Notes: generated by a model from the letters alone, not told the origin. A stretch of DNA of 64,000 nt from an uncultured Eubacteriales bacterium (GCA_964456985.1 CAYWDH010000008.1:14243-78242); one strand, 5' to 3'. Positions 13,391 through 60,079 are shown, counted from the first letter of the stretch. Translations and numbers: made by a program.

Positions 13391-14602
13391 ATGCAACTTG
13401 ATAAAAACGGCTTTCAGCAAAAAAGGGAGAACCTTATTTTAAAAGGGATCATCTTTTTATGTGCCTTTTGTCTTTTTTCGTTTGCATCTATAGGGAGTCA
13501 AATAGAAGTCAAAGATATTTATAAGACTGGAGTCATCACTCTTAAAAATAAGCCTGGATTTGGTGAGGAAACGGATTGGGATACACTTTTTTACAATGCG
13601 GTTATAGATATCACTGTGGCGCCTGATGGATCTATTTTTGCCGCTTCCAGTCGGCAGCATACAATTTTCAAATTTGATTCCAACGGCAAGTTGATCAAGT
13701 CATTCGGGCAGAAAGGGCAGGGGCCTGGTGATTTTAATGGTCCTTGCGACCTTTCTGTACTAGACGGGATATACCTCGTTGTTGGAGAATCCCCCTTAAG
13801 TCATCGCATCAGTCTTTTTGATCTGGAGGGACATTTTGTTAAAGTTCTCAAAACCACAAAAAGCGTGTTTAATCCCATTGCTCTTAGAGATGGGAAGATT
13901 GCCTATGTATCTCTTTCTCATGTGGATGACAGTAGAGATCCCCTAGCTCAAATTCAGATTGTTTATATTAAAGACATTTCCAGTCAAGAAGAAATCAAGG
14001 TAAGTTCTTATAAAACAGTCTTCCCCCGCACAATCCCTTTAAAATCCGGAACCAGTTTTAGTTTCGGAGAGGAGACAGGAGCATGGACTTATCTTTCTCT
14101 AACCAAGGACAGGAACCTGATCGTTGGGATTTCAAATCAACCGGTTTTAACCGTTTATTCCCCGGATGGAGAAAAGCTTTATGAAATAACATTGAGAGGG
14201 AAAGCCCTACCGCTTACTCGCTCTGTCATTCAGCGTTTTAAAGAGAGTATGTTGAATAAGCACAGAAGGAACTCGAGCTTAATGCAAGAACTGGAAAAGG
14301 CAGATCTGAAACTCCTTTTTGATGAATACCTGCCGCTTTATCGGGCGCTCTTGACAGATGAGGCTGGGCATATTCTGGTTTTTCGGAGGGACGGATACTT
14401 TTTTGAATATCCGAATACTTTCGAGGTGTATACGTCCGAAGGGGATTTTATTTGTGAGACAGAAATAAAAACCAGGGATTACAAGCTCCTCATCAGCCGA
14501 TATAGCAAACACATGTGTTTCACCGATGATGGACTCATCGCCCTTGTGGAGCCTCTCAATTCCCCTCAATTCCGCCTTGAGATCATCAAAGTTGCGTATT
14601 AA
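13391..14602 (+). CDS. NHL-type beta-propeller family protein (paralog 1), secreted
   Basis: Motif FKFDSNGKLIKSFGQKGQGPGDFNGP. Hydrophobic N-terminal signal. ATG 13391 is preferred over TTG 13385 (AAAGGGG 7 nt upstream). Confidence 0.8.
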   Translation: MQLDKNGFQQKRENLILKGIIFLCAFCLFSFASIGSQIEVKDIYKTGVITLKNKPGFGEETDWDTLFYNAVIDITVAPDGSIFAASSRQHTIFKFDSNGKLIKSFGQKGQGPGDFNGPCDLSVLDGIYLVVGESPLSHRISLFDLEGHFVKVLKTTKSVFNPIALRDGKIAYVSLSHVDDSRDPLAQIQIVYIKDISSQEEIKVSSYKTVFPRTIPLKSGTSFSFGEETGAWTYLSLTKDRNLIVGISNQPVLTVYSPDGEKLYEITLRGKALPLTRSVIQRFKESMLNKHRRNSSLMQELEKADLKLLFDEYLPLYRALLTDEAGHILVFRRDGYFFEYPNTFEVYTSEGDFICETEIKTRDYKLLISRYSKHMCFTDDGLIALVEPLNSPQFRLEIIKVAY

Positions 14603-14630
14603 GGATACTGTTTAAAGAAAAGAAATCTTC

Positions 14631-16718
14631 CTATTTAACCGTTGTCTTAACAGAAAAGAACTTGTATTTATGGTAGGTGACTTTCATCTCAGACACCTTG
14701 GAAAAGCCCTCATGCGGATCAGAATAGGCTTCCTTAAAAATTATCCGTGTAGGATAGCGAAGACCATCTTTTTCCAGGCCAAAATCGAGCTCTATGTTTA
14801 TCCTGGGAGTGGCGCCCCGGCTTACATAATCCGCCTGTATCCTTTCATATCCCCCCAGTGATTCGGCCTCGATTTCCATCTTTAAAACAGATCCATCTTC
14901 TTTATCCACCCACACCTTCCCGTAATTCGGTTTTCCAGTGATCAGTTTTTTTGGCTTTGCCTCAATGACCCATGCCGCTCGCCCGTCTACTGATTCTTCC
15001 TTCAGTATGGAATAATTGTAAAACTTTTGAGAATCCTCACTGAGCAGTCCGATTGGTCCGTAAATGGGTTTGTACATATAGAATCGCTTCGTCTCAAGCG
15101 GAGCATAAGCTTCATGTCTGAGATTCCCATTCTCCATCTCCAGGATCCGCCGTTCCATGACCCGGCCCTGTTTGCGGATTAACTGATAGTCATAGACATA
15201 TGAATTTTTTTCTCCGTTGTTGAACCTCGAGATTGTAAAAATTGGATCGGGTTTTAATTTATTTCTCTCTTTTGGAGGGTGGCGTCTGTCCACAATAAAA
15301 CGGGAATTTGTGTTACTGGGGAAGATGGTTTCCGTTATCTTTTCCTGACAAACGAAATAGAGGGCTGTATCTTCAAGCCTCTGACAGTAGCGGGCGGTTT
15401 CCGTTAAGATCGAATCAATAGAGGATGGGCTGCGGAGGTGAGTCTCTGGCTCGTCGGGATGTTCTTTTTCGTCTAACTTGAAATCGACATCAACCTCGTA
15501 CTCAGCGGTTACAGGTTTTCCGTCCTTTATCTTTGGTTCGTACTTCCACTGCCTGAGCGCAGCCACAGCAGCTGCATCAATCTCCGGGTGAAGAGGCTTT
15601 GAAATCCGCACCTCTGAAACATCACCAGCTTTGTCCACCTCTAATCCTGCCTTCACAACTCCCTGGATCCCTTTCTTCTGGCAGTCTTCAGGAAATTCTG
15701 GCCTGACCAGGACTAAAGGTTGGGATGGGATCGATTCTTCTTCAGGAAGCGCGCTTTTTTGAACTTCTATAAACCATTCCTTTAACAAATCTATGACGGG
15801 GTAGATTTTTTTCTTAAAATATTTAATCCGACTTCTTCTTAAGCACTTATCCGGATCCTCCTGAAATTTCTCCATACACTTCTGGGAACAGAACAGGAAG
15901 GTATAGCCTTTATACACAAGAGATGCCTCAGCTCTGTTTTTTTCTTCAATCCCATCCCCTCTCCCTACGATCTTTCCGCATACAGGGTCAGCGTCACTGA
16001 CATTGAAAAAGTCCAATTTGGTGCCAACCAATCCTGCTGTAAACTGTCTGGCATCTCTTTTGAACGCTTGGAGAGCAAGAAAGTAGGAATGGTCGCAGGT
16101 AGGAAGGACTAGTATCACAGGCTCATTAAGGGGTATGGTCAGCTTTGTGTCCAGCCACTTTTCTCCACCAACACCATCTTCAATTTTTTGAGTTTCCACA
16201 AACAACATAAAATCGCCGTAACTGACTTCACGCTTTAATCGCACAAAAGGTTCATAATGGTAGCGGATTTCGTTTGGTCTGTACTTAAAAGCCTCCACTT
16301 TTAGAGTCAGGATGTTTCCTTTTAAAGAGAGAGGATAAAATTGTATGGGATATAAATAAAAATAGTTTGCCCTCACTGCCTGGTTGAGGTTTTCCGCTTT
16401 TCCGTCCCAGACCATGGCTGCGGATGTTAAACCTATGACATAAGGAACTTGGCAAATGGAGCTCACCTCATCCCTCAGGAATGTGAACGCATCCTCACCG
16501 GGTTTTCTGCTTTCCGGATGGATATGCAGTGTGATGGGCCTGGGGAGAGAAGATATAGCCGGATCAGCTCCGGGTTTAAGCCCCTCCCTAAATCCCCTCA
16601 TCAGGTAAGAATGGATGACAATCTCATCTTGAGCGTAACAAAGGCCTGTTGTGCCCGCAAAGAAAAGCAGTAAAAGTAGCACAATGAGATATTTTAGGTC
16701 ACTATTTTTGGTTCTCAT
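14631..16718 (-). CDS. secreted multidomain protein with YHS domain and TonB C-terminal-like domain
   Basis: Signal peptide LLLLLFFAGTTGLCYA. YHS-like DPVCGKIV...YKGYTFLFCSQKCMEKFQEDPDK (about 15846-15989). TonB_C-like PEFPEDCQKKGIQGVVKAGLEVDKAGDVSEVRI...AAVAALRQWKYEPKIKDGKPV (about 15474-15704). About 280 aa of C-terminal sequence of unknown fold. Confidence 0.75.
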   Translation of the reverse strand: MRTKNSDLKYLIVLLLLLFFAGTTGLCYAQDEIVIHSYLMRGFREGLKPGADPAISSLPRPITLHIHPESRKPGEDAFTFLRDEVSSICQVPYVIGLTSAAMVWDGKAENLNQAVRANYFYLYPIQFYPLSLKGNILTLKVEAFKYRPNEIRYHYEPFVRLKREVSYGDFMLFVETQKIEDGVGGEKWLDTKLTIPLNEPVILVLPTCDHSYFLALQAFKRDARQFTAGLVGTKLDFFNVSDADPVCGKIVGRGDGIEEKNRAEASLVYKGYTFLFCSQKCMEKFQEDPDKCLRRSRIKYFKKKIYPVIDLLKEWFIEVQKSALPEEESIPSQPLVLVRPEFPEDCQKKGIQGVVKAGLEVDKAGDVSEVRISKPLHPEIDAAAVAALRQWKYEPKIKDGKPVTAEYEVDVDFKLDEKEHPDEPETHLRSPSSIDSILTETARYCQRLEDTALYFVCQEKITETIFPSNTNSRFIVDRRHPPKERNKLKPDPIFTISRFNNGEKNSYVYDYQLIRKQGRVMERRILEMENGNLRHEAYAPLETKRFYMYKPIYGPIGLLSEDSQKFYNYSILKEESVDGRAAWVIEAKPKKLITGKPNYGKVWVDKEDGSVLKMEIEAESLGGYERIQADYVSRGATPRINIELDFGLEKDGLRYPTRIIFKEAYSDPHEGFSKVSEMKVTYHKYKFFSVKTTVK

Positions 16719-59708: not shown

Positions 59709-59720
59709 GGAAAATATCCA

Positions 59721-60079
59721 ATGAAAAAATCCATTGCGAGTGTTTTGTTCATTTTGTGTTTTTTGGCGTACTGTGGGCCAGGCAGGCGCAATGTGGAAAA
59801 GGCAACCGAGAATGGAGTCGAGGTTATCATCTTGAAGCTTTCTTTGTGGATTATGCAGGCCGTATTTATGTACGGACTTTTGAAAATGGAGAGGTCGAGG
59901 GAAGCCGCATTCATGATGTTTTTACTTCTGAAGGTGTTTTTATAAGCCGCATCAACCTTGAATTGAGTTTTGATAGGGAATACAAGTACGCGCTTTCAAG
60001 GAACAAAAAAATCTATGGATTTAAAGAAAAAGGGAATGGGTTTGAACAGTTCATTTCATACAGAATCACCTGGAAATAA
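59721..60079 (+). pseudogene. internally deleted, frameshifted remnant of a propeller paralog (15)
   Basis: Frame A reads MKKSIASVLFILCFLAYCGPGRRNVEKATENGVEVI (family N-terminus). From about 59830, frame B reads HLEAFFVDYAGRIYVRTFENGEVEGSRIHDVFTSEGVFISR...GNGFEQFISYRITWK (family C-terminus). About 270 central codons are missing. Confidence 0.75.

Follow-up and report, generated by a model that had tools for sequence, protein, structure and literature searches.

The question raised by this locus is what a single bacterium does with fifteen related, putatively exported beta-propeller proteins encoded in one short chromosomal region. The window, i.e. the whole stretch of 64,000 nucleotides (nt) analyzed here (GCA_964456985.1, CAYWDH010000008.1:14243-78242, deposited under the name of an uncultured Eubacteriales bacterium), originates from an uncultured member of the Aminicenantes (Acidobacteriota) and carries these genes, labelled N1 to N15 in order of position, on the chromosome. 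Based on profile searches, structure models and comparisons with related loci, the genes encode six-bladed NHL-type propellers of the DUF5128 family, an identity considered secure, and the proteins are putatively exported by the Sec pathway. Regarding their function, a non-catalytic, mostly lipid-anchored repertoire of envelope binding proteins represents the best reading, which is held with a confidence a little short of even.

An original prediction, made from the DNA sequence of the window, had described fifteen paralogous loci occupying about 26% of it, and this description was confirmed. Reading frames were open on the predicted strands at all 15 intervals, with a summed length of 16,625 nt corresponding to 26.0% of the window. 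For four loci, the mechanically determined open reading frame (ORF) starts slightly earlier (13385, 17959, 18297 and 33345, at TTG, GTG or ATG). The ATG starts chosen in the original prediction are those preceded by a ribosome-binding site (RBS) of the GGAG/GGGG type, which applies to most of the chosen starts. Paralogy was verified by an all-versus-all alignment, in which 14 copies align over their full length with a mean column identity of 25%, and for which pairwise identities and a tree were computed. A family profile built from this 14-copy alignment was searched against all six-frame, stop-to-stop ORFs of at least 40 amino acids (aa) in the window; it recovered exactly the 15 loci at E-values of 1e-43 to 1e-130, the N15 remnant following at 6e-15, and no further family locus was found in the window. 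Since the profile matches the 15 loci only, the count is complete, far beyond chance. Thirteen copies are intact and of full length, and two (N14 and N15) are broken.

All 14 scorable copies pass the gathering cut-off of PF17170 (DUF5128, "6-bladed beta-propeller"; 22.9 bits for the whole protein) with scores of 26.5-60.9 bits, the fragments of the N15 remnant giving no DUF5128 score. The cut-off of the NHL repeat (PF01436; 20 bits) is passed by five of the 14 copies, namely N4, N7, N5, N8 and N11, the other nine staying below this per-repeat value. The TolB_like cut-off (PF15869; 29.2 bits) is not reached by any copy: eight copies match below the threshold, the best being N3 with 27.5 bits. 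Among the NCBIfam models, ScyF (NF035926) is the top match for 12 of the 14 copies, a weak one that remains far from the cut-off of 350 bits (best E-value of the 14 copies 4e-18; 29.8 bits for N1), and LIC_12708 (NF047780) is weakly matched by eight of the 14 copies without reaching its cut-off of 150 bits (best E-value 5e-7; 25.8 bits for N1). Because the DUF5128 matches cover mostly the first half of the profile and are modest in score, the copies are, as judged from these profiles, distant but valid members of DUF5128. In searches of the PDB, the family profile retrieved the NHL domains of Thin, TRIM2/3/71 and Brat at E-values down to 4e-50, followed by peptidyl-alpha-hydroxyglycine lyase (PAL; 3fvz) at 3e-12 and the exported protein BF0058 of Bacteroides fragilis (4raa) at 1.4e-11.

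Structure models were computed with AlphaFold (AF2) for two copies, N5 and N13. The N5 model, derived from an alignment of 87 sequences, is of high confidence (predicted local distance difference test (pLDDT) 91.8, predicted template modelling score (pTM) 0.87) and shows 24 strands arranged in six four-stranded blades; a short helix forms an insert between blades 4 and 5, and the last blade is adjoined by strands from the N-terminus. Foldseek comparison of this model returned TRIM-NHL domains (E-value 1e-13), 4raa (TMq 0.60) and the DUF4221 protein 3s9j. The N13 model (pLDDT 73.5) has the same topology, its C-terminal third being of low confidence, and its top Foldseek matches are the NHL propellers of Brat and Mei-P26, 4raa being matched as well. 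Accordingly, both modelled copies adopt a six-bladed NHL fold, in agreement with the predicted assignment to NHL- or DUF5128-type propellers.

The sequence motifs proposed as hallmarks of the family fared differently. The blade motif ending in GxKGQGPGEF was found in all 14 alignable copies; its G..G.G positions are invariant, and these three glycines are the sole invariant residues of the 14-copy alignment. Its conservation was thereby substantiated, but not its novelty as a family-specific feature, as it corresponds to the ordinary NHL inter-blade signature (fG.kG.G.GeF..P), which these copies keep strongly at one junction only, that between blades 1 and 2. Because the blade motif is this standard signature, the family profile matches TRIM-NHL proteins several times per chain. 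The N-terminal motif DG[VI]xVVxN is recognizable in about 10 of the 15 copies and the late motif DxxGR[LI][YFW]V in about 10 copies, and the C-terminal GYxxxVxYxxxW tail, predicted for most copies, occurs in its strict form in about five and in a looser form in about eight. Furthermore, a hydrophobic N-terminus is present in every copy as predicted, but the accompanying claim that a lipobox is usual was too strong. Judged from sequence patterns alone, a canonical lipobox is found in four copies (N3, N5, N10 and N11) and an ambiguous match to the pattern in two (N6 and N8); five copies (N2, N7, N12, N13 and N15) have a non-canonical Cys directly past the hydrophobic stretch, and four (N1, N4, N9 and N14) have neither. 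Among the 87 aligned homologs, the lipobox Cys is kept in 83%.

The strong divergence outside the motifs had been taken as a sign of an old, maintained expansion, which is borne out by the comparison of paralogs and orthologs. The highest identities between paralogs of the window are those of N2/N12 (39%), N2/N3 (38%) and N5/N6 (33%), followed by N8/N9 (31%); most pairs share 22-30%, and the tree is star-like. Across genomes, orthologs reach 45-90% identity, as exemplified by N2 (90%) and N1 (73%) in the related locus L075, N3 in L074 (63%), N9 in Ca. Aminicenans sakinawicola (L019; 53%) and intact N14 orthologs in L033 and L006 (45-46%); relatives of N5 occur in other genomes at 84% and 52%. 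Since several copies are nearer to relatives in other genomes than to their paralogs in the window, the duplications predate the species splits. A search of the window for DNA repeats revealed only a stretch of about 31 nt, coding for GQGPGEF, as common to the family copies, and recent amplification or gene conversion was ruled out on this basis. In comparison with the closest relative, L075, the ratio of nonsynonymous to synonymous substitution rates (dN/dS) amounts to 0.20 for N1 and 0.15 for N2, versus 0.07-0.08 for the flanking RNase-H-like and UPF0047 genes, which indicates purifying but somewhat relaxed selection on these two copies.

These data also bear on the notion of a gene graveyard, in which the duplicates are decaying, or of an artefact of assembly or binning; in either case the cluster would have no function today. 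Two broken copies among 15 would suit a graveyard, but the other 13 are intact and of full length, most of them with an RBS, and the dN/dS values of N1 and N2 speak for constraint. The family genes also differ in composition from the other 37 genes of the window (GC content 0.375 vs. 0.431, lower at all codon positions; third-position GC 0.374 vs. 0.450, Mann-Whitney p = 6.5e-4; p < 0.001 in both cases), a difference that would speak for the graveyard or artefact; their low GC content could be due to expression level, relaxed selection or foreign origin. Gene content differs even between close relatives; however, orthologs of individual copies are retained in other species, parts of the locus were assembled independently in other samples, and paralogs of at most 39% identity are too diverged to be collapsed or chimeric repeats. 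A graveyard or artefact is therefore very improbable and already largely refuted.

Gene turnover in the region is nevertheless evident. In L075, the gene order is UPF0047, RNase H, N1 ortholog, an extra family member and N2 ortholog, and the ADH, HD, B12-radical SAM and TonB_C genes of the window (8827-13056 and 14631-16718) are missing. Likewise, L084, a metagenome contig, lacks the segment 28730-33417 comprising a LuxR gene, two M28 peptidase genes and N4. Relatives as close as L075 (90-95% protein identity to the window) or L084 (88% nucleotide identity) thus lack whole gene blocks, which makes the region a hotspot for changes in gene content. Taken together, the duplications are ancient and orthologous subfamilies persist across species, while copies are still being gained, lost and inactivated.

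The family is widely distributed within the host lineage. The neighboring genes of the window are consistent with Acidobacteriota, including four duplicated MacB/FtsX ("ADOP"-type) permeases, a search for N5 homologs yielded 370 sequences, mostly from Aminicenantes, with an identical N5 present on an NCBI contig of 89 kb, and NCBI already labels the family "6-bladed beta-propeller" in Aminicenantes metagenome-assembled genomes (MAGs). The organism itself also appears in sequencing run SRR14802572. Scanning one genome per GTDB species for the peptide KGQGPGE[FM] (7-sequence alignment) returned at least 594 stretches, at least 523 of which are confirmed relatives. The best 80 of these at least 523 relatives are nearly all from Aminicenantes MAGs, often with several loci per genome, and 79 related loci served for the comparison of neighboring genes. 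Some of these loci (L005, L013, L016-L018, L022, L023, L025, L026 and others) bear other taxon labels ('uncultured Eubacteriales', 'uncultured Clostridia', 'uncultured Saccharibacteria' or 'uncultured Chloroflexia'); their best relatives are Aminicenantes propeller genes, and the labels are probably placeholders or wrong. Clustering is not peculiar to the window, as related genomes also carry arrays and not merely scattered single copies: tandem arrays are frequent, with seven copies in 11.5 kb in L006, six in L053, four in 3.9 kb in L008 and four in 10 kb in L085, and 153 full-length copies were counted in 1.14 Mb of sampled flanks of related loci. On a wider scale, the profile matched 144,318 clusters of 1.84 billion representative proteins at E <= 1e-3, of which 12,843 remained at E <= 1e-30, the latter count mixing giant multi-repeat NHL proteins with the family of about 370 aa; among the 150 best clusters, full-length members of this size are frequent, and so are the giant proteins with multiple NHL repeats.

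Evidence regarding the function was derived from the distribution of conservation over the fold, which was mapped on N5 by secondary-structure order. Conserved parts are blades 5, 6 and 1 together with the N-terminal hairpin and the loop from strand D of blade 1 to strand A of blade 2 (1D-2A), and variability peaks in blade 3 as well as in the 2D-3A and B-C loops. Of all strands, the inner A strands, which line the central channel, show the lowest conservation, with a mean of 1.76 bits compared with 2.76 bits for the B strands. In the 87-sequence alignment, no column contains more than 49% His and no Cys is conserved other than the lipobox Cys; a conserved His is also lacking across the paralogs of the window. 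The statement that the family has no catalytic signature was thus corroborated. Conserved Asp, Gly and Phe residues recur at equivalent positions of several blades, a trait also of the structural NHL consensus. This pattern appears more compatible with a binding scaffold whose recognition side varies than with a propeller enzyme.

Propeller enzymes are the first alternative to be weighed. The copies might be lyases, lactonases or hydrolases of the periplasm or cell surface that differ in specificity and serve a degradative lifestyle, with PAL, SMP-30/gluconolactonase and streptogramin B lyase as models. PAL is matched by the family profile, as given above, and by Foldseek with both N5 and N13, but it coordinates Zn through His residues in its central cavity, and this His triad has no conserved counterpart in the family. 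Foldseek matches of N5 include the lyase Vgb and a putative lactonase, and two of the 14 copies show weak SGL matches, though these, like the TolB_like scores, lie under the Pfam cut-offs. The conserved acids D89, E117, D296, D316 and D348 could in principle bind a metal; however, they occupy repeat positions of several blades like those of the structural NHL consensus, and conservation is lowest in the inner strands of the central channel, the usual location of propeller active sites. Nearby genes of the window encode sulfatase and M28 peptidases, but these hydrolases are not conserved neighbors in the 79 related loci. An enzymatic role is, in view of these points, considered unlikely.

Non-catalytic binding remains the preferred explanation, with an estimated probability somewhat under one half. 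According to this proposal, each protein would act as a binding module located either in the periplasm or at the outer membrane. A scaffold side common to the paralogs, possibly a common docking face, would be built from blades 5, 6 and 1 together with the N-terminal hairpin and the KGQGPGEF loop that links blades 1 and 2, and the opposite side (blades 2-4 and the B-C loops) would differ between paralogs and set the ligand of each copy. Given such a paralog-specific variable side, the genome is proposed to hold a repertoire of receptors for envelope or environmental ligands, e.g., peptides, glycans or proteins. Several points weigh against this proposal. The lipoprotein status is pattern-based, with a canonical lipobox in only four to six copies; the assignment of loops to faces is approximate, since the mapping uses secondary-structure order and not coordinates; and, with a number of Asp and Glu residues conserved, acid/base or Ca2+-dependent catalysis is still conceivable. 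Moreover, the dN/dS estimates cover two copies and one relative only, no paper naming DUF5128 or PF17170 was found in the literature searched, and no ligand, partner or localization is on record for DUF5128 members.

Alternatively, the shared side may point to accessory or chaperone-like subunits that dock on shared envelope machines, with clients or machines that differ from paralog to paralog. Candidate machines are outer-membrane protein assembly, TonB-dependent or MacB/ADOP-type transporters and Tol-Pal-like systems, and the roles would resemble those of BamB, BamH, TolB and ScyF. The conservation of one side of the ring together with the N-terminal hairpin agrees with a docking surface shared by the paralogs, the TPR repeats fused to N8 are a protein-protein interaction module, and BamB is among the Foldseek matches of N13. 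BamH is a six-bladed propeller lipoprotein of the beta-barrel assembly machinery (BAM) complex in Bacteroidetes (bioRxiv 10.1101/2025.01.31.636011). ScyF, whose model 12 of the 14 copies match weakly, is a non-essential adjuvant encoded in the scytonemin cluster, for which protein-protein interaction or chaperone roles have been proposed (PMC4870267). The ScyF and TolB_like scores are, however, far under their thresholds, and the dozens of paralogs per genome exceed the needs of known machines.

Four ADOP-type permeases and a TonB_C protein among the arrays of the window would also suit docking subunits, but this adjacency is not general. In a partner search, every non-family protein of the window was compared by phmmer with six-frame translations of the related loci. 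Homologs were found for ABC ATPases in 12 of the 79 loci, for ADOP permeases in eight, for the TonB-type protein in four and for the radical SAM protein in none; the most frequent non-family cluster beside propellers consists of the generic ABC ATPases. With ADOP homologs in just eight loci, the permease-propeller adjacency is not a general feature. De novo clustering of ORFs of at least 120 aa in the related loci revealed no recurrent neighbor, and the neighbors on two long Pfam-annotated contigs were unrelated. The absence of a recurrent neighbor rules out that the B12-radical SAM gene or the ADOP permeases are partners in general and agrees with the original prediction, which had noted no obvious partner enzyme. 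Overall, a role as dedicated subunits of envelope machines seems doubtful.

The positions and scores of all copies and of accompanying features are compiled in Table 1.

Table 1. Propeller copies N1-N15 and further features of the window (positions counted from its first nucleotide; bits refer to the Pfam models DUF5128 and NHL).
Feature	Position	Strand	Description	Score
N1	13391-14602	+	403 aa; hydrophobic N-terminus, no lipobox	DUF5128 26.5 bits; profile E 1e-91
N2	16754-17929	-	391 aa; N2/N3/N12 subfamily; non-canonical Cys (IYCG)	DUF5128 29.7 bits
N3	18312-19469	+	385 aa; N2/N3/N12 subfamily; canonical lipobox (FISC)	DUF5128 27.6 bits
N4	32308-33315	-	335 aa, shortest copy; no lipobox	DUF5128 60.9 bits; NHL 34.0 bits
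N5	37489-38583	+	364 aa; canonical lipobox (VVSC)	DUF5128 39.4 bits; NHL 23.4 bits
N6	38655-39836	+	393 aa; in tandem with N5, 71-nt gap	DUF5128 48.6 bits
N7	43255-44430	-	391 aa; last gene of five-gene same-strand array	DUF5128 53.6 bits; NHL 38.9 bits
N8	44431-45936	-	501 aa; propeller with C-terminal TPR domain	DUF5128 33.8 bits; NHL 21.5 bits
N9	45938-47038	-	366 aa; no lipobox	DUF5128 57.2 bits
N10	47041-48168	-	375 aa; canonical lipobox (LVSC)	DUF5128 38.5 bits
N11	48220-49401	-	393 aa; canonical lipobox (LSGC); first gene of array	DUF5128 49.3 bits; NHL 21.1 bits
N12	56202-57347	+	381 aa; N2/N3/N12 subfamily	DUF5128 35.7 bits
N13	57353-58399	-	348 aa; divergent copy	DUF5128 33.4 bits
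N14	58560-59708	+	pseudogene or sequencing error; in-frame TAG at 59001-59003	DUF5128 39.8 bits (first half)
N15	59721-60079	+	remnant in two frames, one with signal peptide and first strand, the other with the final ~80 residues	
ADOP-like permease 1	3329-5764	-		
ADOP-like permease 2	40397-43117	+		
ADOP-like permease 3	49556-52090	-		
ADOP-like permease 4	53101-55674	-		
PadR regulator	39957-40424	+		
PadR regulator	55671-56000	-		
YHS/TonB_C/LolA-like protein	14631-16718	-	695 aa; between N1 and N2	
tRNA-Arg(ACG)	18123-18198	+	N2-N3 intergenic region	
Five-copy intergenic repeat	11299-11443, 13196-13340, 37261-37373, 39844-39956, 43133-43245	+	~105-115 nt	
Partial duplicate	3143-3305 and 6937-7156		94% and 73% identity	
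ADOP1 + PD40 block	3329-6690		putative insertion	

Regarding individual copies, N2 and N3 are divergently oriented, with the tRNA-Arg gene, the only RNA gene found in the window, between them. N4 lacks both the helix insert and the N-terminal motif. The array N11-N10-N9-N8-N7 has intergenic gaps of 51, 2, 1 and 0 nt, the start codon of N7 directly adjoining the stop codon of N8, and this spacing suggests an operon. Within the array, N8 carries about 130 residues of TPR repeats (TPR_1, 1.5e-29 at residues ~370-485); the exact N8 protein was not found in a collection of 15 billion sequences, in which its neighbors are present. The two halves of N14 correspond to profile positions 1-150 and 159-369. 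Since TAG also serves as N14's own stop codon, the internal TAG is a nonsense mutation or a sequencing error and not recoding, and an alternative genetic code was ruled out for the same reason. In N15, profile positions 1-38 and 291-370 survive in different frames, positions ~39-290 being lost; judged from these fragments, N15 is an internally deleted and frameshifted copy of the N2/N3/N12 type. Upstream of the copies, only the RBS and A/T-rich k-mers were common in a search for a shared regulatory motif, and scans for promoters and terminators remained at chance level.

Among the neighboring genes, the ADOP-like permeases (811-906 aa, MacB_PCD/FtsX) form a second expanded family in the window and have no adjacent ATPase. 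PadR regulator genes precede two of the four, and permease 3 is encoded on the strand of the N11-N7 array, 154 nt upstream of it. The block of ADOP1 and PD40 looks like an insertion because its junction is duplicated: after the 3' end of the AAA_14/DUF4143 gene region comes a partial copy of the sequence that leads into and opens the UPF0047 gene. The 695-aa protein combines YHS, TonB C-terminal and LolA-like domains, which is an unusual combination, and it has homologs in only four of the 79 related loci. A B12-radical SAM gene adjoins N1; a link of N1 to radical SAM chemistry or to peptides that ribosomes make and that are modified after translation (RiPPs) was rejected, as the gene was found in none of the 79 related loci and is absent at the syntenic site of L075.

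Furthermore, an intergenic repeat with the core GGGGGACGGGCCCGGGGATC...CTACTTTTCCACAGNTCCTTCCCCTG...ATTTTAGGGCAAAAAA is present in five copies, with 70% mean column identity and 79-88% pairwise identity. It brackets the radical SAM gene, lies upstream of N1, N5 and a PadR gene, and is located between the 3' ends of ADOP2 and N7. Its interpretation as a structured RNA was rejected, as the predicted hairpin lacks covariation and has no Rfam match. The repeat was not found in the loci of other species, and only three JGI metagenome contigs carry it. It looks like a lineage-specific element resembling repetitive extragenic palindromic (REP) sequences or miniature inverted-repeat transposable elements (MITEs), and it may mark cassette boundaries.

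Comparison with known systems places the proteins within an established kind. DUF5128 proteins such as the exported BF0058 resemble the window copies, which are putatively exported, in their length of about 350-400 aa and in the same six-bladed fold, 4raa being the best full-length structural match; the window copies differ in matching mainly positions ~40-250 of the 321 positions of the Pfam profile (26-61 bits) and in adding a conserved N-terminal DGVxVVxNP hairpin and the helix insert between blades 4 and 5. Moreover, 4raa and 3s9j originate from Bacteroides, whereas the window copies are from Aminicenantes. TRIM-NHL proteins (Brat, Thin, TRIM2/3/71 and Mei-P26) share the six-bladed NHL fold and the inter-blade signature, but they show this signature at every blade junction and not sharply at one, have only 13-19% sequence identity to the window copies in structural alignment, and represent intracellular RNA- or protein-binding domains of E3 ligases without a signal peptide. 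ScyF is comparable as a bacterial exported NHL propeller without proven catalysis; in contrast to it, the window copies are multi-copy and lack a PEP-CTERM tail, and no scytonemin (scy) genes were found in the window. The LIC_12708 family of Leptospira and other propeller lipoprotein families of spirochaetes and Bacteroides are paralogous and exported or lipid-anchored as well, but belong to other phyla, and the LIC_12708 scores are well under the cut-off. Finally, BtuG (BT1954, a Foldseek match of N5), BamB and BamH are lipid-anchored propellers that act by binding a ligand or machine and not by catalysis. BtuG has seven and BamB eight blades; the likeness of these proteins to the window copies is a functional analogy only, and no TonB-dependent transporter or BAM gene was found beside the window copies.

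The protein family itself is already known, being represented in Pfam as DUF5128 and named by NCBI in Aminicenantes MAGs, and what the clustering adds is quantitative, the kind of protein being known and not new. No paper combining Aminicenantes with NHL or beta-propeller proteins was found in the literature searched. As no literature on DUF5128 or its expansion in Aminicenantes was found, the clustering itself may be undescribed. The window by itself reveals no new mechanism.

Aminicenantes are abundant uncultured bacteria of sediments and the subsurface. With a quarter of 64 kb devoted to the family and arrays across the phylum, these propellers likely represent a sizeable part of the Aminicenantes envelope proteome. 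DUF5128-type propellers are numerous and without assigned function, and the window offers a compact natural panel of 13 intact, deeply diverged paralogs with conserved and variable sides mapped. A wider view, more speculative and still less probable than the enzyme or docking alternatives taken singly, is that of an Aminicenantes-specific, diversified recognition repertoire of the envelope, in which each genome would supply dozens of lipid-anchored propellers that attach to one outer-membrane partner through a shared docking face, made of the N-terminal hairpin, blades 5, 6 and 1 and the KGQGPGEF loop, and a fast-evolving opposite face would capture different substrates or recognize competitors or phages. 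If this view were true, such a shared-dock repertoire would account for the family's expansion, its tandem arrays and its rapid turnover, and would constitute a modular receptor system undescribed for DUF5128.

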